Virus record (IMG/VR): IMGVR_UViG_3300045988_144476
Origin: a virus
DNA length: 64,000 nt
Direction: 5' to 3' (one strand)
The notes beneath the pieces are model-generated. The model was not told the DNA's origin. It saw only the letters and a list, made by a program, of their open reading frames with translations, and did not search any database. The position numbers were made by a program, and so were the translations under genes. Positions 34,785-51,025 of this stretch are shown here, one piece after another (position 1 is the stretch's first letter; each line of letters starts with the position of its first letter).

Positions 34785-37700
34785 ATGAATAAGACTATAA
34801 GAATTAAAGAATTAGTAAGAATGTTAAATATGTATTGTGATGCATATTACAACAGAAATGAAAGTATTATCTCAGATAAGGAGTTTGATAAATTATATGA
34901 TGAATTATTAGACTTGGAAAAGGAAACTGGGATTATATTAAGTAATTCCCCAACGCAGCACGTTGGATATGAAGTTAAGAGCGAACTGCAGAAGGTAAAA
35001 CATAGCCATCTTATGATGTCTTTGGATAAGACTAAAGATGTTAATGAATTAATTAAATTTATTGGGAACCATGAATGTGTGCTGATGAATAAGATGGATG
35101 GGTGTTTTATTGGAGACACTAGAATTACCATGGCAAATTATAAAACAAAGAAAATCAAAGATATTAAAATAGGAGATGAAGTATTGTCGTATGATTTAAA
35201 TGGAAAAATATGTACGTCAAAAGTTAAAAATATATATAATAATGGACTCAAAACATTTGATGAGTGGGTCGATTTACAATTGTATGATTATTTATTAAAA
35301 TCAAATAAATATCATGTTACATGTACAAAAAATCATAAAATTTATACACCAAATGGATATAAAGAAGCCGGTAATTTAAATGTGGGAGATTATGTTTATG
35401 TGCATAATAAAAAAATATCACAAGATCAATCAGATATTTTATTAGGAATTTTATTAGGAGATGGTTGGTTTGTAAATAGATCAAAATTAAAAGAAAAATC
35501 TCTTAAAAATAAATTAGAAATTCATTATTCTAAAACAAAGTCAAAACATTATGATGATTTAATATATCAATTACAAAAGAAGTTTATTACATTCAATTCA
35601 ACAATATCATATAGAACTTCTGGATATTCAAGTAAAGAAAATAATATGGTTAATTTAAATTTGGGAGTAATTGATGTACCAGATTATTTCTGTAACTCTA
35701 AAAATCATTTAAGATGTGGTTTTACTTTTACTGAAGAGATATGCAAACATTTATCACCATTAGCTCTTGCAATGTTTTATTTGGATGATGGAAGTAAAAT
35801 ACAATGTCAAAATGATGGTTTTGACGTTTATAATGTAAAAAATACATGTTTATTACATACGAATAGACATAAAAAAGAAAGTGTAAAAATTTTAAGTGAT
35901 TATTTAAAATCTATTGGTGTATCAAATAATATAAGATTTGAAAAATGTTTAAAAAATTATGATTTTGGTGATGGATATATTATATATATTGATGCAGAAG
36001 GTACAGAAGTATTTTTTGATATGATTGCTAAATATATTCCAAAAGAATTCCGGAAGATTAAATTAGGATTAAAGGATAAATGGCAAAATTGCGAATGTTT
36101 TAATTTCGAAGATGACGATAGTAATTATTCATTAATAGAAACTCAAATTACAAATATCAAAAATGGATTTAGAAGAAGTCCATCACAATCACATATAACT
36201 AGAAAAACTGCGTATGATTTAGAAATTGAAAATACACATTGTTATTTTGCAAATGGATTTGCTGTTCATAATTGTACAATGCTTTTAACATATGAAAATG
36301 GAGAATTAATTCAAGCTGAAACGAGGGGAAATGCTACAGTTGGTGAACTTGTCACCCATAATGCGAAAGTGTTTGAAAATATTCCGCTTCATATTGATTA
36401 CTCTGGTTATCTTGAAGTTGAAGGTGAAGCAATCATTACATATAATGATTTTGACAATATTAACGATACAATCAAAGATCCGGATAAAAAATATAAGAAT
36501 CCGCGAAATCTTGCGGCAGGATCTGTACGGCAGCTTAATAGTGAAATTGCAAAAGGAAGACATCTTAAGTTTATTCTATGGAAAGTTCCAACTGGGATGA
36601 ATCATATTAATAGCTTTAAAGAAAGACTCGAAAATGCAAGAGAAGTAGGATTTGACATTGTTCCTTTTGTAACTGTAGATTCAGCAGAAGATATAAATGG
36701 AGCAATTGATGGGTTGAAGAATGTAGCTAAGAATTTGTCTTATCCTATCGATGGCATGGTAATCACTTATGAAGATATTGATTATGGTTTATCTCTTGGC
36801 GTAACGGATAAATTTCCAAGGCATTCATTTGCATTTAAATTTTATGATGAGGAATACGAAACTACACTGCAGGATGTTGAATGGACCATTGGAAAAAGTG
36901 GACAACTTACACCAACCGCAGTATTTGAACCGGTAGAAATCGATGGAACAGAAGTATCCAGAGCGAGCCTTCATAATGTAAGTATTTTTAAAGCATTTGA
37001 TATGCATGTTGGAGATACTATTATGGTGTATAAAGCCAACCAGATAATACCGCAAATTAAAGAGAATTTATCAAAGGGAAGTAATACCGGTACAAAATTA
37101 AGTATTCCACAGAAATGTCCGTATTGTGGAGAACCTACTATAGTTGTTAAAGAAAATGATTCTGAAGTATTAATGTGTTTGAATGCTCAATGCCAGGGTA
37201 AGTTGCTTGGTGAATTATGTGCTTTTGTAGGAAAAAAAGCTCATGATATTAAAGGGTTATCAGAAGCTACACTATCTCTTATGATTCATACAGGAATGGT
37301 ACATTCTCCAATTGATTTGTATCATCTGGAAGATAAGAGAAAGGAATTAACTTATTTTCCAAAAATGGGATCTAAAAAAGTAGATAATATCCTTAAAGCA
37401 ATTGAAGAAAGTAGAAATACTACTTTAGAGAAATTTATTGTAGGACTTAATATTCCTTTGATTGGAAGTCGTGCTGCAAAAGATATTGCTAAACATGAAG
37501 AGATAAGAACAAAAGAAGCGAAATTAGTTAAACCTATTAATACATTTATAGTAGATGCAGCAGAAAATTATGATTTCACACATATTGAAGGATTAGGTAT
37601 AGAAAGAAATAATTCTATTCATAACTATTTTAAAGAAAATTATGATTATGTTTGCGCTATGGCATCATTATTTAAATTTCCTGAGATGAATTTAGAAACA

Positions 37701-37952
37701 GAAAACATTTCTACTTCAACATCTTTAGAAGGAAAAAAATTCTGTATTACAGGGAAATTACAGAAATTTGCAAATCGTGATGCTCTTGTAGCTGATATTG
37801 AAGCAAAAGGAGGTAAAGTTGTGTCCGGAGTAACTAAGGCAACAGATTATCTTATTACAAATGATAAGACAAGTGGATCCAGTAAGAATAAAAAAGCTGC
37901 TGAATTAAGTATTCCTATTATTAGCGAAGAAGAATATATTAATTTATCATAA
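34785..37952 (+). CDS. ligA: NAD-dependent DNA ligase (LigA) interrupted by an intein
   Basis: Adenylation motif KMDG, with TRGN..VGE after the insert. Also an OB fold, a Zn finger CPYCG...C..C, HhH repeats, and a C-terminal BRCT-like GKKFCITG. The exteins total about 665 aa. Confidence 0.9.
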   Translation: MNKTIRIKELVRMLNMYCDAYYNRNESIISDKEFDKLYDELLDLEKETGIILSNSPTQHVGYEVKSELQKVKHSHLMMSLDKTKDVNELIKFIGNHECVLMNKMDGCFIGDTRITMANYKTKKIKDIKIGDEVLSYDLNGKICTSKVKNIYNNGLKTFDEWVDLQLYDYLLKSNKYHVTCTKNHKIYTPNGYKEAGNLNVGDYVYVHNKKISQDQSDILLGILLGDGWFVNRSKLKEKSLKNKLEIHYSKTKSKHYDDLIYQLQKKFITFNSTISYRTSGYSSKENNMVNLNLGVIDVPDYFCNSKNHLRCGFTFTEEICKHLSPLALAMFYLDDGSKIQCQNDGFDVYNVKNTCLLHTNRHKKESVKILSDYLKSIGVSNNIRFEKCLKNYDFGDGYIIYIDAEGTEVFFDMIAKYIPKEFRKIKLGLKDKWQNCECFNFEDDDSNYSLIETQITNIKNGFRRSPSQSHITRKTAYDLEIENTHCYFANGFAVHNCTMLLTYENGELIQAETRGNATVGELVTHNAKVFENIPLHIDYSGYLEVEGEAIITYNDFDNINDTIKDPDKKYKNPRNLAAGSVRQLNSEIAKGRHLKFILWKVPTGMNHINSFKERLENAREVGFDIVPFVTVDSAEDINGAIDGLKNVAKNLSYPIDGMVITYEDIDYGLSLGVTDKFPRHSFAFKFYDEEYETTLQDVEWTIGKSGQLTPTAVFEPVEIDGTEVSRASLHNVSIFKAFDMHVGDTIMVYKANQIIPQIKENLSKGSNTGTKLSIPQKCPYCGEPTIVVKENDSEVLMCLNAQCQGKLLGELCAFVGKKAHDIKGLSEATLSLMIHTGMVHSPIDLYHLEDKRKELTYFPKMGSKKVDNILKAIEESRNTTLEKFIVGLNIPLIGSRAAKDIAKHEEIRTKEAKLVKPINTFIVDAAENYDFTHIEGLGIERNNSIHNYFKENYDYVCAMASLFKFPEMNLETENISTSTSLEGKKFCITGKLQKFANRDALVADIEAKGGKVVSGVTKATDYLITNDKTSGSSKNKKAAELSIPIISEEEYINLS
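35103..36272 (+). mobile_element. 390-aa intein with a LAGLIDADG homing-endonuclease domain
   Basis: Starts with Cys (CFIGDTRI) immediately after KMDG. Block B is TKNH. Two LAGLIDADG motifs are present: LLGILLGDGWF and LAMFYLDDGS. It ends ...FAVHN, followed by the +1 Cys. Confidence 0.85.
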
Positions 37953-37971: not shown

Positions 37972-38000
37972 TTGACATACGAAGAAATGTGTGATATAGT
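37972..38000 (+). promoter_or_regulatory. sigma70-like promoter
   Basis: TTGACA, 17-nt spacer, TATAGT, with a TGn extended -10. It is bracketed by two motif copies. Confidence 0.65.
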
Positions 38001-38046: not shown

Positions 38047-38766
38047 TTGAAAAAGAAGAAAAAGCAATATTACATTGCAAATCATAAAGATACCAAGTTT
38101 TTATGTTCAACAAATATAGATATATCTTCAATTACACATGAATTTGACAAAGCGATGATTTTTCAGAATGCAACTAGGCCAGGTCAAATCATAAGGATGC
38201 TACCTAAAGCAGTGCAAAAATATGGTCCTTTTGAAATTCATGTTGTTAAAGATATTTCGCAGCCTGATCTATTAACAGCAGAAGATATAACTAAAATTTT
38301 AAGTGAAAATAAAACTAGTGTTGATTTGCAAGAGAAAACAGAAGTAAAAGTAGAATGTAAAAAAGAATTTGATTTTCAAGAAATAAAAGATGAGTTGAAT
38401 TCTTTTGCACCAAAACTCAAATCTATGCTTGATCAGCAGGAAATGTTGAAACTTGAATTATCTAATATTGATCTTGAAATATCAGATATTCTTCATTATA
38501 TAGAATTTCATAGATTTTCAGCATGTGAAGGATATAAACTTGCTAAAATGATACAGGTTGCTAGTGATAAAAGGAGAGAAATAAAAAAACAGCTGGAAGT
38601 AATAAATATATTTAAAACGAGTACCTGCACATCAATATCATCAGGACATCTTATAAATAAAATTGATAATGTAGATGATAAAATATATAGACCAAGAATT
38701 CTTAATAATTTATTTGAGAATGGAAAGAATAAAGAAAGAGAAAATATTAAAGTTAATTATAATTAA
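38047..38766 (+). CDS. hypothetical coiled-coil protein (239 aa), TTG start
   Basis: The ORF follows aaagga. The start codon is uncertain. Confidence 0.5.
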   Translation: MKKKKKQYYIANHKDTKFLCSTNIDISSITHEFDKAMIFQNATRPGQIIRMLPKAVQKYGPFEIHVVKDISQPDLLTAEDITKILSENKTSVDLQEKTEVKVECKKEFDFQEIKDELNSFAPKLKSMLDQQEMLKLELSNIDLEISDILHYIEFHRFSACEGYKLAKMIQVASDKRREIKKQLEVINIFKTSTCTSISSGHLINKIDNVDDKIYRPRILNNLFENGKNKERENIKVNYN

Positions 38767-38778
38767 TGATTTAATCAA
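38765..38778 (+). repeat. intergenic motif copy AATGATTTAATCAA
   Basis: Exact copy overlapping a stop codon. Confidence 0.9.
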
Positions 38779-38792
38779 AAGGAGAGACAGAA

Positions 38793-40865
38793 ATGAATTT
38801 TAACGATTTTAACAAAGCAATCACAGATCATTTTGAAGAAATGACAAAAGATGTCAAAAGAGTATTTGAAGTTGAATTTGATTATGAGGAAATGAATAAT
38901 CTTTATCTTGATTCTTTTCCGTCAGGCACAAATGAAATTTATCGAAAGAGAAGAGAATATGATTGTAGTTGTTGTAGACATTTTATTCGTGATATTGGTA
39001 ATGCAGTAGTAATTAAAGATGGAAAACTTCATACAATCTGGGAATTGGATATTGATGATAAAGTTTATTCTGTAGTAGCAAAAGCTCTCGATCAGTATAT
39101 TCGAGAGAAAGCAATTAAAGGTGTATATCTCAGAAAAGAAAAAAGAATTGGAACCGCTATTAGCAGAGAAATACTTCCAACTGGTGAAATTCATAAATAT
39201 GATCATTTCTATATTGATCTTCCGAAAATTTGCATTTATGAGGAAAGATATAGTTCTACTTTAGATGGAGAAAAAGGGAAATTTAGAGATACAAGAAATG
39301 TGTTTAAAAGATCGCTTGATGAAATTGATCCGGAAGCTGTTGATACAGTTCTTGAATTGATTGGACAGAATTCATTATACAAAGGATCTGAATGGAAAGC
39401 AGTTCTGCAGGAATTCAAGAAATATCAGAAAGAATACAAGAAACTTACAGATATAGAAAAAGAACTTTGGACCTGGGAAAAATCAATTGACATTGGAATG
39501 ACAGTTGGTCGAATTAGAAATCACAGTATGGGAACATTACTTGTTAACCTGTCTGAAGGAATGGAACTTGATACTGCGGTAAAGAAATACGAACAGATTG
39601 TAGCTCCTGCAAATTATAAGAGGCCAAAGGCAATCTTTACTAAGAAGATGCTTGAGGATGCAAAGAAAACAATTTCCGAACTTGGTTATATGGATTCTCT
39701 TCAGAGAAGATTTGCAACTCTTGATGATATTACAGTAAATAACATTCTATTCTCTAATAAAGATGCTACTAAGAGAATTTCTGGTGCAGATGATCTATTT
39801 GGAGAGATGGAAAAAGATGTTGCAATCAATCCGAAAAAGTTCTCTAAGGTAGAAGAAATTAGTGTAAGAGACTTTATTAATAATGTTCTTCCTACAGCAA
39901 AAGAACTCGAAGTGTTCTTAGAGAACAAACATGAGAAAAACATGGTATCACTCATTGCTCCGGAAAATAAAGAAGCGAAATCAATGTTCAAGTGGAATAA
40001 TTCATTCTCATGGGCTTATACAGGTAATATTACTGATTCTGATATTAGAGAAAATGTAAAGGCTGCAGGTGGATCTGTAACAGGTGTACTTAGATTTTCT
40101 ATTCAGTGGAATGATGGTGGAAGAGATAATTCAGATCTTGATGCACATTGTATTGAGCCAAACGGAACAGAAATTTATTATGCTACTTATAAAAAACCAA
40201 GAATGACAGATATGGGCGGTCAGCTTGATATTGATATTATGGAACCATTTTCACAGTGTAAAGCATCAAATGGAGTAGCAGTAGAGAACATTACATATGC
40301 TACAAAATCAAGAATGAAACCTGGTACATATAAATTCTTTGTAAATCAGTATTGTTCAAGAGGATCTAAAGGCTTTAAAGCAGAGATTGAAGCAGATGGC
40401 GAAGTTCATTCTTATAAATATGATAAGCCGGTACGTAGAAACGTTCAGGTCGCTGAAGTTATTATGGATGAAAATGGTAACTTCAAGATTGTTGATAAAC
40501 TCGATGGAAATAGTGCGATGACAAGTAAAGATGTATGGAAAGTTAAAACAAACCAGTTTATGCCGGTATCTGTTGTATGCTATTCTCCAAACTATTGGGA
40601 CGAACAGAAGGGAATTGGACATCAGCATTTGTTCTTTATGCTTAAAGATTGTGTGAATCCGGAAGAGCCGAATGGATATTACAATGAATTCTTAAAACCG
40701 GAACTTGAGCAGCATAAGAGAGTATTTGAAGCTCTCGGAGCTAAAGCACATGTAAAAGATGTAGATGATCAGCTTTCTGGTATTGGATTTAGCCTTACTA
40801 AGAGAAATGATTTGATTGTTAAAGTCAAAGGTGCAACTGAAAGGGTATTGAAGATTAAATTTTAA
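38793..40865 (+). CDS. large hypothetical protein (690 aa)
   Basis: Conserved-looking N-terminus (FPSGTNEIYRKRREYDCSCCRHFIRDIGN). The C-terminal region (LRFSIQWNDGGRDNSDLDAHCIEPNG...LDIDI...VENITY) suggests a beta-sandwich. No family was assigned. Confidence 0.7.
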   Translation: MNFNDFNKAITDHFEEMTKDVKRVFEVEFDYEEMNNLYLDSFPSGTNEIYRKRREYDCSCCRHFIRDIGNAVVIKDGKLHTIWELDIDDKVYSVVAKALDQYIREKAIKGVYLRKEKRIGTAISREILPTGEIHKYDHFYIDLPKICIYEERYSSTLDGEKGKFRDTRNVFKRSLDEIDPEAVDTVLELIGQNSLYKGSEWKAVLQEFKKYQKEYKKLTDIEKELWTWEKSIDIGMTVGRIRNHSMGTLLVNLSEGMELDTAVKKYEQIVAPANYKRPKAIFTKKMLEDAKKTISELGYMDSLQRRFATLDDITVNNILFSNKDATKRISGADDLFGEMEKDVAINPKKFSKVEEISVRDFINNVLPTAKELEVFLENKHEKNMVSLIAPENKEAKSMFKWNNSFSWAYTGNITDSDIRENVKAAGGSVTGVLRFSIQWNDGGRDNSDLDAHCIEPNGTEIYYATYKKPRMTDMGGQLDIDIMEPFSQCKASNGVAVENITYATKSRMKPGTYKFFVNQYCSRGSKGFKAEIEADGEVHSYKYDKPVRRNVQVAEVIMDENGNFKIVDKLDGNSAMTSKDVWKVKTNQFMPVSVVCYSPNYWDEQKGIGHQHLFFMLKDCVNPEEPNGYYNEFLKPELEQHKRVFEALGAKAHVKDVDDQLSGIGFSLTKRNDLIVKVKGATERVLKIKF

Positions 40866-40880
40866 TCTTTAATAATAAAT

Positions 40881-40894
40881 AATGATTTAATCAA
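40881..40894 (+). repeat. intergenic motif copy AATGATTTAATCAA
   Basis: Exact copy before an RBS. Confidence 0.9.
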
Positions 40895-40907
40895 AAGGAG
40901 TAGAAAA

Positions 40908-41285
40908 ATGGAATTAACAAACGTATTTGAAAGGGCAGCTATGAATAAGTACAGATTTCCTTATAAGGGACAGATTTCTGTAGAAGATCTTTGGGATCTA
41001 TCTCTTCCAGGACTTGATTCTGTATTCAAACAGCTTAACAAGCTGAAAAAGGTAAATGAAGAAGAAAGTCTTCTTGAAGTAAAATCTGCAGAAGATGTAG
41101 AAGTAGAAGATAAGATTGCTATTGTGAAATTTATTGTTAAATATAAACAGGACGCAGCACTTGCAAGACTTACCGAAAAAGAAAATAAAGAATACAATCA
41201 GAAAATTATGGCTATTATTGAAAAGAAACAGGATCAGGCACTTGAAAATATGTCTGTAGAAGAACTTCAGAAACATTTAAGATAA
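40908..41285 (+). CDS. hypothetical coiled-coil protein (125 aa)
   Basis: RBS aaaggag upstream. Confidence 0.6.
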   Translation: MELTNVFERAAMNKYRFPYKGQISVEDLWDLSLPGLDSVFKQLNKLKKVNEEESLLEVKSAEDVEVEDKIAIVKFIVKYKQDAALARLTEKENKEYNQKIMAIIEKKQDQALENMSVEELQKHLR

Positions 41286-41302
41286 ATAAAGGAGAGAAAC
41301 AA

Positions 41303-43927
41303 ATGAACGGATTAAGTAGTAAAGAAGTTTCTCAGAGTAGGGCTTTACATGGGAGCAATAAGCTCCCTGAGCCTAAAATGAAGAAATGGTATCATTTTGC
41401 AAAGGAAGCATTAACAGAGTCAATTACAATGATTCTTATTGCAATTGCAGTATTTCAGATAATTCTTGGAGTTATTGGCGTAGCAGAAATTTCTGAACCA
41501 ATTATGATTCTTGTGGTACTTTCAATTGTAACAGGAATTGCAATTAAAACAGGTCTTGGTGTACAGAAATCAGCGGCAGAATTAAAAGCGAAAACATCTC
41601 TTAGGTACTGTGATGTAATTCGAGATGGAAAATTACAGACAATTAATAAAGATGATCTTGTAGTTGGTGATATTGTAATCATTAGAACTGGTCAGGAAAT
41701 ATTCGCTGATGGATATATTGTTGAAGGAAAAATTTCTGTAAACAATGCAGCTATTAATGGAGAATCAAAGGAATGCAAAAAGACTCCGATTGATGGATAT
41801 AAACATGTAAAAACTACATCAACAGATGCATATACAAATCAGAACTGCTTATTTGCCGGTACAACTGTAATGTCTGGAGAAGGTAAGATGATTGTAACGG
41901 AAGTTGGTGTTAATACAGTAAATGGTGATACTCTTGTAAAGATGCAGACACTTGAAGCACCTAAAACAGCACTTGATATTGCTCTTGATAATCTGTGTGA
42001 TTTTATTTCTAAATGGGGAACAATTGCAGCAGTATTAGCATTTGTGATCATGACAGTTTCTGGAATTATGCAGGCCGGTGGTATGTCGCAGTATTTCAAT
42101 GGAGGTATTCTTGAAAATATCCAGAAGATTGCTACTAATTTCTCAATTGCATTGACTATTATTGTTGCAGCTGTTCCGGAAGGATTACCGCTTATTGTAA
42201 AACTGGTAACGAAACAGAATGTAAGTACAATGGAAAAATTTAATATCCTTGCTAAGAATCCAGGAAAAATTCCTGAGCTTGCATATGTAAATCTTATTTG
42301 TACTGATAAAACAGGGACGCTTACAACAGGTATTATGACACCAAAAGTAATGGTGAATGGTGCTTGCGAAGATATTATGAATGATAAAGATTCTGTTGCT
42401 GCAGGTCTTATTAAGAATAATGTATGTTTAAATAATAGTGCTGATTATGATGCTGACGGAAATATTACTGGTGGTAACTCAATTGATCGAGCAGTATTAG
42501 GATTATATTCAAAGGGAGATTGTAGAATCGTTAAAGAATCATTTGCAGTAAAAAACAGACTTCCTTTTAGTAGCGAGAATAAGTATTCTGCTATAGAAGT
42601 TGCTAGTTTAACAGCTGATGCACAGATGACTTTATATAAAGGTGCTCCTGAAAAACTTATTCAGAGATGTTCTTACTACATTGCAAACAGTGGAGAAGTA
42701 AAACAGTTTACAGATTCTGATAGAAAAGCAATGGAAAGTTATATTAAAGGACTTACAGAAAAAGCAATGAGATGTATTGCTCTTACAATGTCTGATTTCT
42801 TTAAGGAAGACGAACTTCCGAAAGATATGACATTACTTGGAGTAATCGGTGTTGTTGATCCACTTAGAGAAGAAGTTCCAGATGCTGTAAAGACTGCAAA
42901 TAAAGCGGGGATCCAGGTAATTGAAATTACTGGTGATTGTCTTGAAACAGCAAAAGCAGTAGCAGCAGAAGCTGGTATTTATCATCCTTGGGATAAGGCA
43001 ATTACAAATGATGAATTTGAAGCTATGTCAGATAACGAAGTAAAAGAAATCATTCCTAAATTAAGAGTTATTTCCAGATGTTCACCTAATACAAAACTTA
43101 GGTTAGTAACTCTTGCTCAGGAAATTGGAATGTCTGTTGCTATGACAGGCGATGGTGTTAATGATTCCCCAGCATTAAAAAAAGCTGATGTAGGATTTGG
43201 AATGGAATCTGGATCTGATGTTGCGAAAGAAGCAAGTGATATTATTCTTACAGATAATAACTTTGCATCAACTGTAAAAGCAACGGAACTTGGTAGAACA
43301 TTTATGCACAATATTATGATGTTCCTTGAGTTTCAGCTGCCAATTAACATTTCATTACTTATCTTAAGTATGATTTATCCGGTAATTTCTGGTGGAGCTG
43401 CATTACTTGCATCGGTACAGATTCTAATTGTGAATATTATCATGGACTCTCTCAACTCACTGAGTTTTGGTGGCGAGCCTCCAAAAGCGGAATATATGAA
43501 AGAGAAACCAATTAAAAAGGGATCTGGATTATTTATTCGTGGTGCTAAAAAGAGAATTGCTTTATCAACAATCGTATTTATTGTTTTGTTTGGTGCGATT
43601 ACATATGGTCCAATTGCGGCAATATTTGCTACACCAGAACTGGCTATTACAGCAAGATTTGCATTACTTTGTTTTATGGCTGTATTTAATGGATTTACAA
43701 TTAGAACGGAAAGCATAAATCTTTTCAATGGCCTTGGTAAGAATAAAGCTTTTTCAGTAATTGCTGTTGGAATTATAGCTATGACATTGTTTTTATGTAA
43801 TATTGCAGGAAGTCTTGTGCAGACAACACCTCTTGATTTAAGACATTGGATTACGGTAATTGTTGTGGCATTTATGATTGTACCGGTTGATATTATTAGA
43901 AAAGGAATTAAAAAGATTAAAAAATAA
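41303..43927 (+). CDS. P-type ATPase, type II (Ca2+-ATPase-like) cation pump
   Basis: An N-terminal cation-ATPase-N-like segment, then NGES, PEGLP, the phosphorylation site CTDKTGTLT, and the hinge TGDGVNDSPALKKADVG. Multiple TM helices. Confidence 0.9.
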   Translation: MNGLSSKEVSQSRALHGSNKLPEPKMKKWYHFAKEALTESITMILIAIAVFQIILGVIGVAEISEPIMILVVLSIVTGIAIKTGLGVQKSAAELKAKTSLRYCDVIRDGKLQTINKDDLVVGDIVIIRTGQEIFADGYIVEGKISVNNAAINGESKECKKTPIDGYKHVKTTSTDAYTNQNCLFAGTTVMSGEGKMIVTEVGVNTVNGDTLVKMQTLEAPKTALDIALDNLCDFISKWGTIAAVLAFVIMTVSGIMQAGGMSQYFNGGILENIQKIATNFSIALTIIVAAVPEGLPLIVKLVTKQNVSTMEKFNILAKNPGKIPELAYVNLICTDKTGTLTTGIMTPKVMVNGACEDIMNDKDSVAAGLIKNNVCLNNSADYDADGNITGGNSIDRAVLGLYSKGDCRIVKESFAVKNRLPFSSENKYSAIEVASLTADAQMTLYKGAPEKLIQRCSYYIANSGEVKQFTDSDRKAMESYIKGLTEKAMRCIALTMSDFFKEDELPKDMTLLGVIGVVDPLREEVPDAVKTANKAGIQVIEITGDCLETAKAVAAEAGIYHPWDKAITNDEFEAMSDNEVKEIIPKLRVISRCSPNTKLRLVTLAQEIGMSVAMTGDGVNDSPALKKADVGFGMESGSDVAKEASDIILTDNNFASTVKATELGRTFMHNIMMFLEFQLPINISLLILSMIYPVISGGAALLASVQILIVNIIMDSLNSLSFGGEPPKAEYMKEKPIKKGSGLFIRGAKKRIALSTIVFIVLFGAITYGPIAAIFATPELAITARFALLCFMAVFNGFTIRTESINLFNGLGKNKAFSVIAVGIIAMTLFLCNIAGSLVQTTPLDLRHWITVIVVAFMIVPVDIIRKGIKKIKK

Positions 43928-43940
43928 AGGAGAATTTAAA

Positions 43941-44726
43941 ATGGGACTGTTTAATAAACTTTTTGGAGCTAAAGAGAAATCAGATTCAGTAGTTACGCAG
44001 CAGCCGTTTACAGGAGTAAAAGAAAATACTCCTGTGAACACCTTAAATTCATCTGCGGCTGTAATCGATATGTCAAAATCAAAAGAAAATCTGAATACTG
44101 TTCTGATTGATATGTCAAAGGGAAGCAAAATTGATATGACAAAACATGTTGCCAGAGTAGCACTTGCAATGGATTATTCCGGATCTATGGATCGTTTATT
44201 TGCTAACGGATCTGTACAGAAAACAATTTCAAGATTACTTCCTATTGCTCTTAAATTCGATGATAATGGTGAGCTTGAATCTTGGTTATTCTCTACCGAT
44301 TACAAACGTCTTGATACTGTTACAGAAAATAATTTCGAAAATTATGTCAAAAGAGTAATGCAGAGATCTGGAATGTATATGGGAGGCACATATTATGAAC
44401 CGGTTTTAAGCGATATGGTTAATTATTATAAAAACATTGAACCAAGCGAAATTCCAGCATTTATAATTTTTATTACTGATGGAGAGAACATGGATAAGAG
44501 TAATACAAATCGTATTATTCGAGAGCTATCTGAGTATAATATTTTTGTTCAGTTTATTGGAATCGGAAATGAAGATTTTGATTATTTGAAATCACTTGAT
44601 AAGCTTGAAGGAAGAAAGCATGACAATACTGGATTTACAGCTGTAAAAGATATGAATAAACTTGATGACCAGCAGCTTTATACGGAAATTCTTCGTCAGT
44701 ATAAAGACTGGTTAAATAAGAAATAA
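43941..44726 (+). CDS. vWA domain protein of the TerF-C-terminal/TerY type
   Basis: MIDAS motif DYSGSM, followed by FITDGEN, VQFIGIG and DNTGF..V....L.D.QLY, as in ter-cluster vWA proteins. The ATG at 43941 follows aaggag. Confidence 0.85.
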   Translation: MGLFNKLFGAKEKSDSVVTQQPFTGVKENTPVNTLNSSAAVIDMSKSKENLNTVLIDMSKGSKIDMTKHVARVALAMDYSGSMDRLFANGSVQKTISRLLPIALKFDDNGELESWLFSTDYKRLDTVTENNFENYVKRVMQRSGMYMGGTYYEPVLSDMVNYYKNIEPSEIPAFIIFITDGENMDKSNTNRIIRELSEYNIFVQFIGIGNEDFDYLKSLDKLEGRKHDNTGFTAVKDMNKLDDQQLYTEILRQYKDWLNKK

Positions 44727-44777
44727 ATTGAAATGCATATAGTATATTGTTAAATAATTGTAAAAGGAGAATGAATA

Positions 44778-45416
44778 ATGGCAGTAATTAATATGAGCAA
44801 GAATCAGAAGATTAGTATGACAAAGGAAGATGGATCCGCAGTAAAAACTTTCTTTATTGGGGTTAATTGGGAAGAAAATAGATATGCAGGAGAGTCTGAT
44901 ATTGACTTTGATATTAATGGATTCATTACAAATTCTGATAGAAAAGTAATCTTTCCACAAGATGTCATTAATTATGCTACATATGGAAATGGATCTGATT
45001 ATCCTTGGATTGAGTATTCTGGAGATAATAGAACCGGTGATGATGCAGAAGGAATTACATTTAATGGAAAACATTTTGATGAATATTTTATTATTCATGA
45101 TGATACTTTCCCTACTGATCGAACTGATTTTACTATCTGCCTTACAATTTTCAGAGCTATTCAGAGAAAACAGAATTTTGGTATGGTTAGAAATGCTACG
45201 ATGACTATTTGTGATTATGATAATCCGAATGGAGATAAGTATGAGTTTGATCTTTCTGAGGATGAAAATTTTGAAAATCTGAATGCAGTTGAAATGGGTA
45301 GACTGTATAAATACGGAAATGGATTTAAGTTTCAGGCTCTTGGTACCGGTTATATGGGTGGAATGACAGAGCTGTTTAAAAACTTTGGACTTGATATTGA
45401 TGAAGGGAGAGATTAA
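44778..45416 (+). CDS. TerD-family (Ca2+-binding stress) protein
   Basis: GVNW...DIDFD...GDNRTGDDAEG...FGMV...YEFDLSED...GRLYKYGNGFKFQALGTGYMGG aligns along its whole length with the TerD sequences I recall. Confidence 0.85.
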   Translation: MAVINMSKNQKISMTKEDGSAVKTFFIGVNWEENRYAGESDIDFDINGFITNSDRKVIFPQDVINYATYGNGSDYPWIEYSGDNRTGDDAEGITFNGKHFDEYFIIHDDTFPTDRTDFTICLTIFRAIQRKQNFGMVRNATMTICDYDNPNGDKYEFDLSEDENFENLNAVEMGRLYKYGNGFKFQALGTGYMGGMTELFKNFGLDIDEGRD

Positions 45417-45419
45417 TTT

Positions 45420-46166
45420 ATGAATCTTACAGCAGGCGCAGTAATTGTTATTGCAGCGATTGTAATTGTTGGTATTTTAATCTTTTGTACTAAATCAGGA
45501 AAGCGTGTCAGACTTAGAATGTCTGGCACTGCTGATGAAGTAATTTCAAAAGATGCATCTACTCCAGAAGGAGCAAAAGCATATTATAATGTTGCAATCG
45601 AAAAGAAACAGAATGATTATAATACTGCTAATAATCTTTTAAAACAGATTGAAGGTAAAAAGGCAGGATTTGAAGATCAGCTTCATCAGTTGCAGAAAAA
45701 TAGATTTGATTGTGTAGAAAAACTTAATCAATGTATTGATTCAAATAATGATGATGGAGCAAAGCTTTATATTAAAGAGCAGCAGAATATTGATGATAAA
45801 GTAAAAACTTTAAAAGCGGCAATTAAGGATCTTGAGAAAAATGAACAACTTCAGAAAGAAACTGTTGAATCATTAGAAGCAGAGTTAAATGATCTTAAGG
45901 CCGAAAAAGACAATGCTATCTTTACTTTATCAACAGCGCAGGTTACACAGTCTCTTCAGGCAAACCCAGGAACATCTTCTAATGAAGAAGATAAAATGCT
46001 TGAAAAAGTTCGTGATGGGATTCAGAAAAAGAAAGAAGAAGCTGATGGAAATAGAATTATGTATGAGAATTCTACATATGTACAGAAGCAGCGTCTTGAA
46101 AAGAAAATGAAAGATGATGAAGTTGATAGAAAATTACAGGAGCTTAAAGCGAAGAAAGGAAAATAA
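45420..46166 (+). CDS. membrane-anchored coiled-coil protein, PspA/IM30- or TelA-like (uncertain)
   Basis: An N-terminal TM helix is followed by about 200 aa of heptad-rich sequence whose layout resembles PspA. Confidence 0.55.
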   Translation: MNLTAGAVIVIAAIVIVGILIFCTKSGKRVRLRMSGTADEVISKDASTPEGAKAYYNVAIEKKQNDYNTANNLLKQIEGKKAGFEDQLHQLQKNRFDCVEKLNQCIDSNNDDGAKLYIKEQQNIDDKVKTLKAAIKDLEKNEQLQKETVESLEAELNDLKAEKDNAIFTLSTAQVTQSLQANPGTSSNEEDKMLEKVRDGIQKKKEEADGNRIMYENSTYVQKQRLEKKMKDDEVDRKLQELKAKKGK

Positions 46167-46167
46167 T

Positions 46168-46251
46168 ATGATTGTTATTAGAATATGGGTATTTCTTTTG
46201 GTTATGCTTATGGCTTTTGTAGTTGGATTTGTTATAGGGAGGATTGAATAA
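46168..46251 (+). CDS. possible 27-aa single-TM peptide
   Basis: Sequence MIVIRIWVFLLVMLMAFVVGFVIGRIE; its stop codon overlaps the next ATG. Confidence 0.35.
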   Translation: MIVIRIWVFLLVMLMAFVVGFVIGRIE

Positions 46252-46688
46252 TGGTTGATATTAAGAAATTGAAAATTGATGATGTTTTAATTAATAAAAT
46301 TAATAAAGATAAAAAACGTGTAAAGTTTATTGCGTCAAATTATATTATTGTAGAGGATTGCAAAAATGGAAAACCTGCAATTATGCTAAAAGAGTGTTTT
46401 ACATTATATACAAAATGTCAAAAATATATTTGGACGGATTGGGAAGAATGCATGTTGTATTTTAATGATCCGTTTGATCGATGTGGTGATTGTATAACTA
46501 GAATTAAATGTAGAGTACGTAGTAATGGAAAAAGAATTCAGGTTAGATCTGGAGCTTTATCTGCAATAGCTTCTTGCAATGAAGATTGTGGAGACAAATT
46601 TAATTTTGATAAAGGAGTAGAAATAGCAGGTAAGAGATTAATTTTAAAATGGTTATCAAATAGACTTGAAGCAGAAGTAAGAGGATAA
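46251..46688 (+). CDS. hypothetical Cys-rich protein (145 aa)
   Basis: ORF in a co-directional array. Confidence 0.6.
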   Translation: MVDIKKLKIDDVLINKINKDKKRVKFIASNYIIVEDCKNGKPAIMLKECFTLYTKCQKYIWTDWEECMLYFNDPFDRCGDCITRIKCRVRSNGKRIQVRSGALSAIASCNEDCGDKFNFDKGVEIAGKRLILKWLSNRLEAEVRG

Positions 46689-46692
46689 TATT

Positions 46693-47088
46693 ATGAAACC
46701 TATTATTAATCCATGGATCATGTATGTTATTGGGTTAGTCAATAATATAAGTTTTATATTTGCAGTAGTTATATTTTTTTTATTAAGTGCAATAATTATA
46801 GTTGCAGCAACTGGGTTTGTTAAGTTTGTTGAAAATTATGATAATTTTGATGAATTTTTAGAGGATAATCATACTGCGGTTAAATGGTTTAAAAAAGGAT
46901 GTATAAGTTTAATTATCGCAGGAATAGTAATGATTTTGATACCGTCTGAGAAAACATTGTATTCTATGGTCGTTCTTGAGAATGTAACTCCTAACAATAT
47001 TGAAATTGCAGGTAATACAGGAAAAGATGTTATTGATTATTTATTTGATAAAATTGATCAAATGAATGACGAAGAGGAAGATAAATAA
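46693..47088 (+). CDS. membrane protein (131 aa, about 2 TM)
   Basis: Two hydrophobic segments and an acidic C-terminus. Confidence 0.6.
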   Translation: MKPIINPWIMYVIGLVNNISFIFAVVIFFLLSAIIIVAATGFVKFVENYDNFDEFLEDNHTAVKWFKKGCISLIIAGIVMILIPSEKTLYSMVVLENVTPNNIEIAGNTGKDVIDYLFDKIDQMNDEEEDK

Positions 47089-47468
47089 TGCAAAAAGGAT
47101 TTATACGAAAAGAAATTATTCCTATCAGCGAAGTGGAAAACGCTGTAAAAGATGTAATGTTTTGTAAAAATAAGCGAGATTCTTATGTTAATATTCGTGG
47201 AGATATTATTAAGGGAAACAGTCAACGCTTTCAGACATTTTTTACAAAAGGATTAAAATGTTCATGTTGTGGAATAGAGGGAAAATATTTTGCAAAAGAA
47301 AAAGATCCGAATGCAGCAAGATATCATTTAAATTTATATGCCATTGATGATGACGGAGAAGAAGTATTGATGACAAAAGAACATATTATTCCGTTATATA
47401 AAGGCGGGGAAAATGATGTGATCAATTTTCAGACTATGTGTGAAAAATGTAATAAAAGGAATCCATAA
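47088..47468 (+). CDS. HNH endonuclease
   Basis: CSCCG...KEHIIPLYKGGENDVINFQTMCEKCN matches the HNH/Zn motif. Confidence 0.75.
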   Translation: MQKGFIRKEIIPISEVENAVKDVMFCKNKRDSYVNIRGDIIKGNSQRFQTFFTKGLKCSCCGIEGKYFAKEKDPNAARYHLNLYAIDDDGEEVLMTKEHIIPLYKGGENDVINFQTMCEKCNKRNP

Positions 47469-47499: not shown

Positions 47500-47528
47500 T
47501 TGACATTTGAAATGAAGTGTGGTATAAT
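47500..47528 (+). promoter_or_regulatory. sigma70-like promoter
   Basis: TTGACA, 17-nt spacer, TATAAT, with a TGn extended -10. Confidence 0.7.
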
Positions 47529-47546
47529 ACATACATAGTCAAGAGA

Positions 47547-47585
47547 GGGAATGCGGAACTGTGAAAGCAGTTCCACTAAATTCCC
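47547..47585 (+). ncRNA. two-tier GC-rich hairpin in the tRNA-Gln leader
   Basis: Stems gggaat/attccc and ggaactg/cagttcc. Confidence 0.45.
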
Positions 47586-47592
47586 AGTAACT

Positions 47593-47606
47593 AATGATTT
47601 AATCAA
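47593..47606 (+). repeat. intergenic motif copy AATGATTTAATCAA
   Basis: Exact copy between the leader hairpin and the tRNA. Confidence 0.9.
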
Positions 47607-47619
47607 TTAGACACAATAA

Positions 47620-47693
47620 TGGGCATTCGCCAAGCGGTAAGGCTCAGCACTTTGACTGCTGCATTTTCGTTGGTTCGAATCCAACATGCCCAG
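47620..47693 (+). tRNA. tRNA-Gln (anticodon TTG)
   Basis: Manual cloverleaf: acceptor tgggcat/atgccca, D-arm CGCCAAGCGGTAAGGC, anticodon loop cTTTGac, T-arm gttggTTCGAATccaac. No encoded CCA. Confidence 0.85.
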
Positions 47694-47719
47694 CTTATTA
47701 AAAACAAAGGAGAGAAAAA

Positions 47720-48826
47720 ATGAAAGTAGTACAGATTGATGATACATTTAGAATTTATGGTGATGATCTTAAGAGTTTTGATAAGTTACCGGCGCAGACT
47801 TATTCAGTAAGATTCTCAAAGAATTCTGGATGGTATCTTGAAAAACATGCTGATATAGAGATCAAAGAATCTAAAATCTATGGCGTACATATGGAAAAAG
47901 TAAACAAGGTTTTAAATGCTTTTAATGAGTTTAACAAGAATCTTGGAATTATACTTTCCGGAAATAAAGGAATTGGAAAATCATTATTTGCTAAAGAATT
48001 AAGTATTCAGGCAATTGGATACGGAATTCCTGTAATTATTGTTGATACTTATATCCCTGGAATTGCTGATTATCTTGAAAGTATTAGACAAGAAGTAGTA
48101 ATATTGTTTGATGAATTTGATAAAACATTTGGCGGTGTAAAAGCACCAGATGGAATGGCAGATCCTCAAACTGAATTGCTTACATTATTTGATGGTTTGA
48201 GTACAGGTAAGAAGTGTTTTGTAATTACATGTAATAATATGAGGAGCTTAAATGAATTCCTTATAAATAGACCTGGTAGATTTCATTATCATTTTAGATT
48301 TGAATATCCTACAGCTGAAGAGATTACAGAATATCTTCATGATAAACTGAATGAAAAATACTATGATCAGATTGCAGCAGTTATAAGTTTTGCTAATAAA
48401 GTTAATCTGAATTATGATTGCTTAAAAGCGATTGCTTATGAATTAAATCATGGAGATGAATTTAAAGAAGCGATTAAAGATCTAAATATTATCAATGTAA
48501 ATGATATTAACTATGTCGTTACATTATACTTAAAAGATGGAAGACATGCAAATGTAACACGTTCGGTTGATATGTTTGATAAGTCTGGAGAATTTAGTTG
48601 TGATAATTTTTATATTGGAAATACTTATGTAGAAGCATCTTGTAAAATTATGGATGTTACATATGATAAGAAAAGATATGTTGATATTGTCAATGGAGAA
48701 TTTGTTTCGCTTAAACCATCATATTATGATGATGACGATGACAGTAAAAAAGAAGTTGAGAAAATGGAAGCAGATTATATGACTTTTGTTAGAGAAACAG
48801 ATAAGAATATTCATTATATGGTGTAG
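47720..48826 (+). CDS. classical AAA+ ATPase
   Basis: Walker A GNKGIGKS, Walker B ILFDEFD, and the second region of homology NRPGRFHYHF. Confidence 0.8.
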   Translation: MKVVQIDDTFRIYGDDLKSFDKLPAQTYSVRFSKNSGWYLEKHADIEIKESKIYGVHMEKVNKVLNAFNEFNKNLGIILSGNKGIGKSLFAKELSIQAIGYGIPVIIVDTYIPGIADYLESIRQEVVILFDEFDKTFGGVKAPDGMADPQTELLTLFDGLSTGKKCFVITCNNMRSLNEFLINRPGRFHYHFRFEYPTAEEITEYLHDKLNEKYYDQIAAVISFANKVNLNYDCLKAIAYELNHGDEFKEAIKDLNIINVNDINYVVTLYLKDGRHANVTRSVDMFDKSGEFSCDNFYIGNTYVEASCKIMDVTYDKKRYVDIVNGEFVSLKPSYYDDDDDSKKEVEKMEADYMTFVRETDKNIHYMV

Positions 48827-49524: not shown

Positions 49525-50009
49525 TCTTAATGATTGATAGTTAACTATAAATATTCACTGTTTACTGAAAACTTTAAACTACAACTCATCAGACTTTTTG
49601 CAGATAATAGCCTAATGTAAAATAATAAAGAAAATCTGCTTCTAATAAAACAAAATGGAAAAAGTATACAGTACTTTTTATTGAATAATGGTGCTTACAT
49701 TATTATTAATAAGATGAGTATATGTTTTCAGAATACAAGCATCAGAAATAAACAATATAGGATATCGTAGATACCTGGTTTATAAGAATGCTCGTGGATG
49801 TCTGAGTATACATATAATACGAACTGTAAAGCTTAAAGTTGTAAAGATCAAATAGTAAAACTCAAAATTCAAAGTTTATTTATTAGATCAAAGTTCAAAC
49901 AGTAAATATCAAAGGTAAAAGTTTTATAAAATCCTTGAATTACAGTTTTGTGTATAGTTGTACTTGACACTAAGTATCTGCAAGGCTGGTAAATGGTGAA
50001 TATTCTTAA

Positions 50010-50091
50010 GCGGATATGACGGAATTGGCAGACGTAGGAGACTCAAACTCTCTGGACATAAGTCGTAAGGGTTCAAATCCCTTTATCCGTA
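50010..50091 (+). tRNA. tRNA-Leu (anticodon CAA), type II
   Basis: Acceptor gcggata/tatccgt, 3-bp D-stem, anticodon loop ctCAAac, variable arm gac-ataa-gtc, T-arm aagggTTCAAATccctt. Confidence 0.8.
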
Positions 50092-50425
50092 TCAGGCTGA
50101 TATATTATAAAGTAAATACGCTGAAGGCCAAGGTGTATTGAACATGATAATTAGACCTGAAGGTTATAACCTATAAGCACTTCACGGCTTTGAGCGTGAA
50201 CCGTTAATAAACTAATGATTCGAATAACTGGAATTGTTAAACTGGAGCCTGTTGATTTTGGAGAACACAGTGTATTGGCTGAATGGTTTGGATACACAAA
50301 AACATTTATATAGATGGATCTATCATGACGAGGATGGGTAGAGGCGAGGTAAGCTATATGTGATGTAAGTAGCTGTGTAGTTATGATTGATCAAAATGGA
50401 TTTCTTTCTTAAGTTACTTTCTTAA

Positions 50426-50527
50426 GATTTCTGTAGTGAGGTAAGTGATTAGCTAAATCAGTAGGTGAACGAAGCGGTAAATTGAAAGATATTTATGGCA
50501 TTGTGGTTGTGGGTAGCTACAGAAATC
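50426..50527 (+). ncRNA. structured domain closed by an 11-bp long-range helix, abutting tRNA-Met
   Basis: gatttctgtag (50426-50436) pairs with ctacagaaatc (50517-50527). An inner hairpin is tgatt/aatca. Confidence 0.35.
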
Positions 50528-50531
50528 AAAA

Positions 50532-50605
50532 GGGAACTTAGTTCAGTTGGTTAGAGCAACCGGCTCATAACCGGTAAGTCCTGGGTTCGAATCCCAGAGT
50601 TCCCA
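50532..50605 (+). tRNA. tRNA with CAT anticodon (elongator Met or Ile2)
   Basis: Acceptor gggaact/agttccc, D-arm GTTCAGTTGGTTAGAGC, anticodon loop ctCATaa, T-arm ctgggTTCGAATcccag. Confidence 0.85.
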
Positions 50606-50607
50606 TT

Positions 50608-50640
50608 CTCCTTATTGTAGATAATAAGGAGATTTAATTT
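50608..50640 (+). terminator. hairpin terminator after tRNA-Met
   Basis: 9-bp stem ctccttatt/aataaggag followed by atttaattt. Confidence 0.55.
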
Positions 50641-50672
50641 CCTTTCTTGTGATGTTTTAACGAGTTACAAAG

Positions 50673-50748
50673 TGATATGTAGTTTAACTGGCAAAACAAT
50701 CTGATTAGCGAATCAGATAGATTATTGGTTCGACTCCGATCATATCAC
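50673..50748 (+). tRNA. tRNA-like gene with an aberrant 20-nt anticodon arm (isotype undetermined, possibly a pseudo- or decoy tRNA)
   Basis: Canonical acceptor (tgatatg/catatca), D-arm (gttt/aaac, loop aactggca) and T-arm (attggTTCGACTccgat). The anticodon arm, however, is atctgat-tagcga-atcagat: 7 bp plus a 6-nt loop. An extra G at 50672 can pair with C at 50748, which resembles the His G-1:C73 pair. Confidence 0.45.
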
Positions 50749-51025
50749 ATCAGGAGCTACAATCCTTAAATTATTCTAGATCCAAAACAAATTGGTGTGA
50801 GTAATTTTAAATATGTGTGACTTTCTAAGGCTTAAAGGTTTCAAGAGAAAATCAGCCGTTGCAGTGAGGTCGATAAACTGATGGCGAGTGGGAACCAGAC
50901 CAGTGACATTTTGAGATTGTTTCGAAAGAGAAACGTACTGTTTTAGAGAAAATGTAGGGAATTGAGCGGCTTCAAAGAACACATAATCCTGGTGTACTGC
51001 AGACATTCAGGTAGGATCCTTAAGG

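Follow-up and report, generated by a model that had tools for sequence, protein, structure and literature searches.

Why would a phage carry a P-type calcium pump beside genes for TerD, a TerF-type von Willebrand factor A (vWA) protein and a membrane-anchored PspA-like protein, and which of the surrounding genes belong with them? We addressed these questions for the window, a 64,000-nucleotide (nt) stretch of IMG/VR record IMGVR_UViG_3300045988_144476; all positions below are in window numbering. A preliminary description, made from the letters alone, had read ten co-directional genes as one coherent module acting on the divalent-cation or envelope state of the host. Our comparison with related loci narrows the coherent unit to five genes at positions 41303-46251, which we call the cassette:

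41303-43927 (+): 874-amino-acid (aa) P-type ATPase, a PMCA-like (type IIB) predicted single-site Ca2+ pump (Pfam, TIGR01517, motifs).
43941-44726 (+): 261-aa vWA-TerF-like protein with an apparently complete metal-ion-dependent adhesion site (MIDAS) (Pfam; MIDAS read by eye).
44778-45416 (+): 212-aa TerD-domain protein of a divergent subtype with an altered acidic loop (Pfam TerD 5e-32).
45420-46166 (+): 248-aa predicted PspA/Vipp1 (ESCRT-III-type) protein with an N-terminal transmembrane anchor (Pfam, AlphaFold2, Foldseek).
46168-46251 (+): 27-aa single-pass membrane peptide, an accessory gene of the cassette (29.6 bits against the hidden Markov model of its family).

We compared 157 viral loci with the proteins of the window. 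TerD was present in 154 of them, and the pump and the PspA-like protein in 153 each. The 690-aa DUF8224 protein and its 125-aa partner, both encoded upstream of the pump in the window, were found in only 46-47 loci, a 239-aa protein from the start of the block in 25 (at ~34% identity), and the 145-aa and 131-aa proteins from its end in 26 and 21, respectively. The 131-aa gene often lies elsewhere in the locus, and the position of an HNH gene relative to the module varies. The ten-gene module thus stood in part: pump, vWA, TerD and PspA-like genes are strongly linked, but the 239-, 690- and 125-aa genes are separate from the cassette, and the 145- and 131-aa genes are variable cargo. Likewise, phage relatives keep the order of pump, TerD and PspA-like genes but not the full ten-gene order with DUF8224 and the small genes.

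The linkage holds irrespective of the gene used for retrieval. In loci retrieved by TerD alone, pump, vWA and PspA-like genes were adjacent in all 75 that had enough upstream DNA; loci retrieved by the pump alone carried TerD and PspA-like genes in 76 of 77 cases, the exception being a deletion variant. Both scans retrieve close relatives only, and these figures describe one broad phage group, not all phages. More than 110 distinct relatives, on viral contigs and on prophage-like contigs of Ruminococcus and Blautia, have pump, TerD and PspA-like genes side by side, while the flanks change. Since neither the flanking genes nor the side of the DUF8224 pair on which the cassette lies is constant, it is the cassette that selection maintains and not its neighbourhood. 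One close mosaic relative, IMG/VR contig 3300045988_167206, shares 99% identity in the pump, 100% in TerD, 87% in DUF8224, 70% in LigA and 34% in the 239-aa gene. Clusters at 90% identity contain up to ~1,250 member sequences each, and the cassette is probably widespread in gut data.

The cassette occurs in two forms. The first, pump-vWA-TerD-PspA, was found at 117 loci (76 distinct pump sequences), and the second, pump-TerD-TerD-TerD-PspA, at 43 loci (36 distinct pump sequences). A neighbour-joining tree built from the pumps mixes the two forms, so exchange has affected the middle genes and left the pump and PspA-like genes in place. A deeper pump lineage, 47-49% identical to the window pump, keeps the linkage, and its sampled loci have the vWA form. 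With the pump of locus L180 as query, further relatives of this lineage were found that carry both forms in phage contexts; independent capture of the deep lineage was therefore not supported.

We next consider what the pump is. Pfam searches upheld the earlier P-type ATPase call (E1-E2_ATPase, 1e-33; Cation_ATPase_C, 2e-29; Cation_ATPase_N, 1.5e-9), and the protein carries the motifs NGES152, PEGLP292, DKTGTLT335 and TGDGVNDSPALKKADVG615. Its best P-type model in NCBIfam is the PMCA-type TIGR01517, with 503.8 bits, just below the curated cut-off of 507.05 and more than 100 bits over the PMR1-type model (399 bits); SERCA-, Mg- and heavy-metal-type models score far below TIGR01517. Among proteins of solved structure, it is best matched by Arabidopsis ACA8, human SPCA1 and Listeria LMCA1 (1e-98 to 1e-91). 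The predicted ion-site residues are the Glu of PEGLP292 in M4 and the Asn and Asp of VNIIMDSL710 in M6. In M5 (FLEFQLPINISLL) we read the alignment as placing a Leu at the position of SERCA E771, which implies a single Ca2+ site. Across 127 distinct pump sequences, DKTGT, PEGLP, the N..D of M6 and TGDGxND are intact with hardly an exception, and the phosphorylation motif DKTGT together with the hinge motif TGDGxNDxPAL is kept in 126 of the 127. By its homology type the pump would export Ca2+, ion and direction both being taken from the family.

The pump could instead transport Mn2+ or another cation, so that the cassette would serve metal supply or detoxification, for instance in the metalation of exported proteins. 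SPCA1, a Ca2+/Mn2+ pump, is the second-best solved relative (1e-91), and MIDAS sites such as that of the vWA protein bind several divalent cations. Furthermore, TerC, which was not detected in the block, is an Mn2+-linked exporter in Bacillus for which a role in the metalation of exported proteins has been proposed. We nevertheless judge this quite improbable: the PMCA-type model scores well over the PMR1-type one, no riboswitch that could name the transported ion, for Mn2+ and Mg2+ included, was found upstream of or within the block, and the conserved PspA-like partner would be left unexplained.

Chromosomal pumps with 64-67% identity to the phage pump, but without the partner genes, occur at 11 genome loci of Ruminococcus and Oscillospiraceae metagenome-assembled genomes; the one of these loci that we examined closely is surrounded by prfB, pgm, dnaB/dnaI and leu/ilv genes. 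Because of these stand-alone relatives, we class the phage pump as a host type. Among the isolate-phage records of INPHARED, no match exceeded ~32% identity, and most matches up to that level are unannotated 'Listeria/Enterococcus phage' fragments or bacterial contigs. Such close chromosomal relatives, in a variable cargo zone with HNH genes, would also be expected if the genes were mere passengers, captured from hosts and lying side by side without functional coupling. This explanation seems to us very hard to sustain, given that adjacency is kept in more than 110 distinct variants despite flank turnover, persists below 50% pump identity and through exchange of the middle genes, and goes with intact catalytic motifs.

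The TerD and TerF-type vWA calls of the preliminary description were also confirmed by Pfam. The vWA protein matches vWA-TerF-like at 1e-59 and, more weakly, Copine at 1e-8; its MIDAS elements DYSGS (DYSGSM78), GGT and TDGE appear complete. The window TerD (5e-32) matches structures 3ibz and 2kxt at ~1e-20 and carries the motif GDNRTGD82. Its loop reads GDNRTGDDAEGITFNGKHFDE, compared with GDNxTGxGDGDDE for the canonical Ca2+ loop: window-type TerDs have an 8-residue insertion, and GKH[YF]DE replaces GDGDDE. The three-TerD form has canonical TerDs throughout (Pfam 1e-68 to 1e-84), with the GDNxTGxGDGDDE loop preserved. Klebsiella TerD binds Ca2+. The biochemical role of TerD and TerF-vWA proteins has stayed unclear for decades, and the cassette gives them a concrete context.

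Classical ter operons confer phage inhibition. The cassette might thus be an abbreviated Ter system for superinfection exclusion, with the pump in the place of TerC and the PspA-like protein in that of TelA, in which a sub-membrane layer or a local ion change would block the entry of competitor DNA. Exactly such a role has been proposed for the TerD/TerC/TerF/TelA subsets of jumbo phages (PMC7824862, 2021), the presence of TerD and a TerF-type vWA protein agrees with it, and the phage may be temperate, a setting in which exclusion genes are common. But TerC, TerB, TelA and nucleotide-signal enzymes gave no Pfam match among the ten block proteins, and no PADLOC defence model scored above noise. 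In addition, Gram-positive phages need external Ca2+ for injection, and a pump that moves Ca2+ outward would not reduce it. Taken together, we regard exclusion as an unlikely role.

The 248-aa protein had been described as PspA/TelA-like and membrane-anchored; the PspA part of this name held, and the TelA reading was rejected, since neither Pfam nor NCBIfam supports it. The protein matches PspA_IM30 (PF04012) with 6e-8 and 32.9 bits, just below the cut-off of 33.9, and many of its homologues carry a precomputed PF04012 match. A profile search against PDB sequences returned Vipp1/PspA at a non-significant level (E ~0.03), amid haemagglutinin coiled coils, and the assignment therefore needed a structure comparison. 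The AlphaFold2 model (mean predicted local distance difference test score, pLDDT, 76) has a helix at residues 5-23, a hairpin at 49-107/111-180 with pLDDT >90, and two further helices. In a Foldseek search of the PDB with this model, the ten best matches were Vipp1/PspA (E 1e-4 to 7e-3), with archaeal CdvB and CHMP next. The model thus supports an ESCRT-III fold, with a long helical hairpin and further helices. The N-terminal amphipathic helix alpha-0 was not found in this protein; the helix at residues 5-23 is hydrophobic and of transmembrane type. Between the two cassette forms the PspA-like proteins are only ~33% identical, with this N-terminal helix and a TPEGA..YYN motif in common. Proteins of the PspA/Vipp1 type form coats on stressed membranes and stabilise them.

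Among isolate phages, a single relative of the membrane-anchored PspA-like protein was found, gp247 of Bacillus phage G (30% identity). Its gene (locus L184, 3693-6696) lies just downstream of those for an ABC permease and ATPase (gp243, gp245), another pairing of a transporter with PspA. We rejected phage G as a second example of the module, because the upstream gp246 is not TerD and the neighbourhood is that of an ABC transporter. A human faecal phage scaffold with a distant PspA-like gene had no TerD or vWA gene detectable by BLAST.

The 27-aa transmembrane peptide noticed earlier proved to be a real, conserved component. Peptides of this family have 27-30 residues, a single membrane pass and the consensus MIVLNIGVF...GKRKK. 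Of 115 distinct loci, 75 carry the gene, always directly 3' of the PspA-like gene; both cassette forms have it (40 of 41 three-TerD loci, 35 of 74 vWA loci). In one sub-lineage (loci L177, 10846-11388, L178 and L179), a LemA-family membrane protein replaces the peptide directly after the PspA-like gene. Three-TerD loci have a short open reading frame (ORF) directly after the pump (33 aa, L186 9708-9809; 67 aa, L030 12618-12821), which may be a second small partner or a chance ORF.

The cassette is embedded in a longer co-directional block with the following further features:

37972-38000 (+): sigma-70-type promoter-like site TTGACA-17-TATAGT, TG-extended (11 of 12 consensus positions; consensus match only).
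38047-38766 (+): 239-aa protein of phrog_32601 (3e-13), function unassigned, TTG start, without a Pfam match; a backbone or cargo gene of variable presence.
38793-40865 (+): 690-aa DUF8224 protein of phrog_1735 (1e-262; PF26675 on homologues).
40908-41285 (+): 125-aa DUF8224 partner of phrog_2018 (6e-36), adjoining DUF8224 in phages TsarBomba and pCD1602_4.
46251-46688 (+): 145-aa protein of phrog_9910, variable cargo (PHROG match; 26/157 loci).
46693-47088 (+): 131-aa membrane protein of phrog_3878, variable cargo (PHROG match; 21/157 loci).
47088-47468 (+): 126-aa HNH endonuclease, 3' edge of the inserted region (Pfam and PHROG matches).
47500-47694 (+): promoter-like site with 12 of 12 consensus positions (47500-47528), then tRNA-Gln (47620-47694); boundary after the HNH gene.
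47720-48826 (+): 368-aa AAA ATPase of phrog_2376 (5e-107), backbone gene (43% identity to the TsarBomba gene beside the DUF8224 pair).

All ORFs, starts, spacings, motifs and the promoter that had been named before were found in their places. The listed genes stood as well, but the end of the block after the two small proteins did not: the unit probably continues through the HNH gene, which overlaps the 131-aa gene by 1 nt. Every ORF of the block is preceded by an AGGAG-type ribosome-binding site, and the intergenic gaps range from -1 to 51 nt. There are 13 bases between the ATPase stop codon and the vWA ATG, and the gap upstream of the pump gene is 17 nt, with no promoter directly upstream of the pump. 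A sequence scan found no strong internal promoter or terminator inside the block. Promoter-like sites are not enriched in the window overall (58 observed, 62.6 expected in shuffles), so that only the site at 37972 and the 12/12 site at 47500-47528 stand out. Based on these two sites, the short gaps and the ribosome-binding sites, it is plausible that positions 38047-47468 form a single transcription unit that runs through the HNH gene and ends before the promoter at 47500, with the cassette probably transcribed from the promoter at 37972-38000.

The 239-, 690- and 125-aa genes at the head of this unit are separate from the cassette, and DUF8224 and the 125-aa gene are a backbone pair. DUF8224 is present in 533 phage records (Bastillevirinae, Ackermannviridae and phiCbK-like phages), none of which has the pump beside it. 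The place of the pair varies among the cassette loci: it may precede the pump, follow the PspA-like gene at a distance of ~1 kb, or be located apart from the module. In Bacillus phage TsarBomba (locus L001, 9001-12611), DUF8224, the 125-aa partner and the AAA ATPase are contiguous; in the window, the cassette is flanked by DUF8224 and its 125-aa partner on one side and by tRNA-Gln and the AAA ATPase on the other. The contiguity in TsarBomba indicates that positions 41303-47468 are an insertion into this backbone. For DUF8224 itself, a structure model reached a pLDDT of only 44.9 from a shallow alignment of 13 sequences (12 at 75-88% identity, one at 60%), a search of PDB sequences gave no match, and we found no support for the label 'DNA-directed RNA polymerase' on a few of its GenBank records. 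Cassette neighbours in relatives include a weak GmrSD_N-like match below the Pfam cut-off (L030, 6847-8268) and RlaP, a nucleotidyltransferase of an RNA-repair pathway (L180, 4617-5645), which mark the surrounding region as a variable cargo zone.

The window as a whole is phage-like, in agreement with the preliminary description. All sizeable genes are on the plus strand, and the G+C content is ~31%. Genes for a DnaE-type polymerase, an exonuclease, a primase, a Sak4-like protein and a DnaB-type helicase lie downstream of the block, those for LigA, a reverse transcriptase, a tyrosine integrase and an MrpR-like recombinase upstream, and there are PHROG matches as well. The relatives of the block are IMG/VR contigs of 100-250 kb. 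By polymerase, the nearest isolates are Clostridioides phage pCD1602_4 (47%) and large Bacillus siphoviruses (~42%); near-identical DNA was not found among isolate phages. The carriers are a large group of uncultured Clostridia phages, whose gut origin we infer from relatives in human and animal gut assemblies. The cassette does occur on bacterial contigs, as the chromosomal-island alternative had foreseen, but as prophage-like copies, on a 3.69-Mb contig and on one of 499 kb from Ruminococcus sp. AM36-2AA; a Blautia faecis record holds a further relative. Among cultured human-gut strains, Ruminococcus sp. AM36-2AA has the pump-bearing cassette, AF25-28AC the DUF8224 gene and Blautia faecis the PspA-like gene. 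Because of the prophage-like copies, the phage may be temperate. The tyrosine integrase (31140-32120, +) and the MrpR-like recombinase (33483-34421, +), 4-7 kb upstream of the block, suggest a temperate or plasmid-like lifestyle.

A temperate phage could use the cassette for lysogenic conversion, that is, a benefit to the host expressed from the prophage, such as tolerance of calcium, metals, bile or antimicrobial peptides, or altered sporulation-linked calcium handling in spore-forming Clostridia. The copies inside large bacterial contigs, the integrase and recombinase just upstream, the host-type promoter and the status of the cassette as cargo in a conserved backbone are all consistent with this. 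TerD proteins and the Bacillus pump YloB have also been tied to calcium and to differentiation or sporulation. Against it, the cassette is co-directional and tightly packed with replication-region genes, and it has neither its own terminator nor a promoter directly before the pump. Furthermore, published phage calcium pumps are highly transcribed in gut samples, which the authors read as active infection (PMC12880540). Lysogenic conversion thus remains a minority view in our assessment.

Several further features of the window do not touch the cassette. The NAD-dependent DNA ligase (34785-37952, +; 1055 aa) has an apparent intein at about residues 105-497, matched by intein N- and C-terminal models; the LigA homologue of relative L177 has 653 aa and lacks the intein. 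A 426-aa reverse transcriptase (20959-22239, +; RVT_1 2e-23) lies in the phage early region. A DUF932 protein (9e-49) is encoded at 15360-16343 (+); the DUF932 family is usual on conjugative elements and phages. A RAGATH-27 RNA (49554-49639, +) scores 89.6 bits, above its gathering score, and is followed by a tRNA cluster (50010-50749, +) with Leu-CAA, Met-CAT and a further tRNA whose anticodon was called, oddly, as four bases.

What, then, could the five genes do together? We propose that their products act jointly at the host cytoplasmic membrane, coupling Ca2+ extrusion to Ca2+-sensed membrane stabilisation, and we consider this reading evenly poised between right and wrong. The pump would move Ca2+ out of the cytoplasm as a PMCA-like single-site P-type ATPase. 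TerD and the vWA protein, the latter via its MIDAS, would be soluble divalent-cation binders that buffer or sense cytoplasmic Ca2+. The PspA/Vipp1-type protein would be tethered to the membrane by its own helix and might form an ESCRT-III-like coat that stabilises or reseals damage; here the model supports the fold, and the activity is assumed from it. The 27-30-aa peptide could, to speculate from its size, topology and position, be a regulator of the pump like regulins, KdpF or MgtR, or a LiaI-like partner of PspA. The purpose would be to hold cytoplasmic Ca2+ down and preserve the membrane during phage replication or residence in the cell, countering leaks from DNA injection, superinfecting phages, pore-forming suicide defences of the host or premature holin action. 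The support comes from domain identity, intact catalytic residues, tight and long-lived linkage and cargo status; the activities are supplied by what is known of the families. That selection has locked a pump, calcium-binding proteins and an ESCRT-III-type protein together in more than 100 phage variants is a strong genetic hint of coupling.

Three benefits are candidates: the infected cell may be shielded from leaks and pore-forming host defences, other phages may be kept out, or the lysogen may gain in fitness. We rank the first highest, because the cassette runs in the same direction as the replication-region genes around it, lacks a terminator of its own and combines the pump with a repair-type protein. 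The nearby integrase and the prophage copies keep the other two alive.

A number of points weigh against our proposal. The pump and the 248-aa protein both fall just short of the cut-offs of their best models, and profile evidence for the latter was weak. The A-domain motif of the pump is NGE[ST] and not TGES, with the catalytic Glu kept and the Thr replaced. As this holds for all pump relatives including the chromosomal ones, it is not a phage-specific decay. Selectivity for Ca2+ over Mn2+ and the direction of transport follow from homology alone. Window-type TerDs have lost most of the second acidic motif, which makes their Ca2+ binding uncertain, and the peptide is absent from 39 of 74 vWA-type loci. 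The linkage figures concern one phage group, and the integrase and recombinase upstream fit a prophage-expressed host-benefit set equally well. Finally, the role of the cassette is itself proposed from sequence.

A bolder version of our proposal sees in the cassette a viral counterpart of the calcium-triggered ESCRT-III membrane repair of eukaryotes; it strikes us as an outside chance. A lesion would let Ca2+ in, TerD (playing the C2-domain part) and the copine-like vWA protein would bind it and recruit or activate the membrane-anchored PspA/ESCRT-III polymer at the lesion, and the pump, tuned by a regulin-like micropeptide, would clear the Ca2+ signal. Should it hold, it would provide the first evidence for calcium gating of ESCRT-III repair in prokaryotes and for the use of this repair by phages to keep the host alive against pore-forming defences. 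The linkage in the cassette itself makes two questions testable, namely whether calcium is a damage signal in bacteria and what controls PspA/Vipp1 assembly. The peptide might also be the first bacterial micropeptide partner of a calcium pump.

The preliminary description knew of no phage system with this gene combination. This claim has to be narrowed, since the parts are already published (PMC12880540, PMC7824862), but the joined operon was not found in the literature searched. PMC12880540 (Sci Adv 2026; preprint PMC12363816) describes Ca2+ P-type ATPases of host origin in huge phages of the gut, the Jug phages and others, among them four further phages of 159-197 kb with pumps resembling those of Bacillota. 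The Jug phages (360-402 kb; Bacteroides/Phocaeicola) have a terD gene adjoining a pspA-like gene; their pump is in a separate operon from terD/pspA, and its partner is an upstream protein of 77-91 aa. Within the literature searched, which took in the article text of PMC12880540, the parts thus appear to be known individually from phages, and a single five-gene operon in two interchangeable forms with a micropeptide does not appear to be described.

How does the cassette compare with known systems? Its pump resembles LMCA1, Bacillus YloB and ACA8 in domain set, DKTGT, PEGLP, the N..D of M6 and the single predicted ion site. It differs from them in its ~30% identity, in the NGE[ST] of the A-domain, in lacking a calmodulin-regulated extension and in its place in an operon with TerD, vWA and PspA-like genes. 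The predicted helical hairpin and following helices of the PspA-like protein match Vipp1/PspA structures, and a small membrane protein encoded beside the gene recalls LiaI-LiaH. Compared with the PspA, LiaH and Vipp1 systems, a transmembrane helix takes the place of the N-terminal amphipathic helix; the gene is phage-encoded, its partners are calcium-related, and regulators of the PspBC/PspF or LiaRS type are lacking. The peptide is like micropeptide regulators (sarcolipin and phospholamban for SERCA, KdpF, MgtR/MgtS) in being a single-pass peptide of ~30 residues with a basic tail, encoded beside a P-type ATPase operon. Its gene follows the PspA-like gene and not the pump, and we claim resemblance only, not a sequence relationship. 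With Ter systems and their short forms in jumbo phages (PMC7824862) the cassette has in common a phage-encoded TerD, a TerF-type vWA protein, a coiled-coil membrane-associated partner and a membrane transporter. It differs in that TerC, TerB, TelA and PRTase/HAD signal enzymes were not detected among the block proteins, and in having a P-type ATPase as transporter and a PspA/Vipp1-like coiled-coil partner. The pumps of the Jug phages (PMC12880540) are likewise host-derived Ca2+ P-type ATPases encoded by gut phages, and all four of their domains were found here by Pfam. Unlike the arrangement described there, pump, TerD/vWA, PspA-like protein and a 27-30-aa peptide are joined here in one unit, carried by phages of Clostridia.

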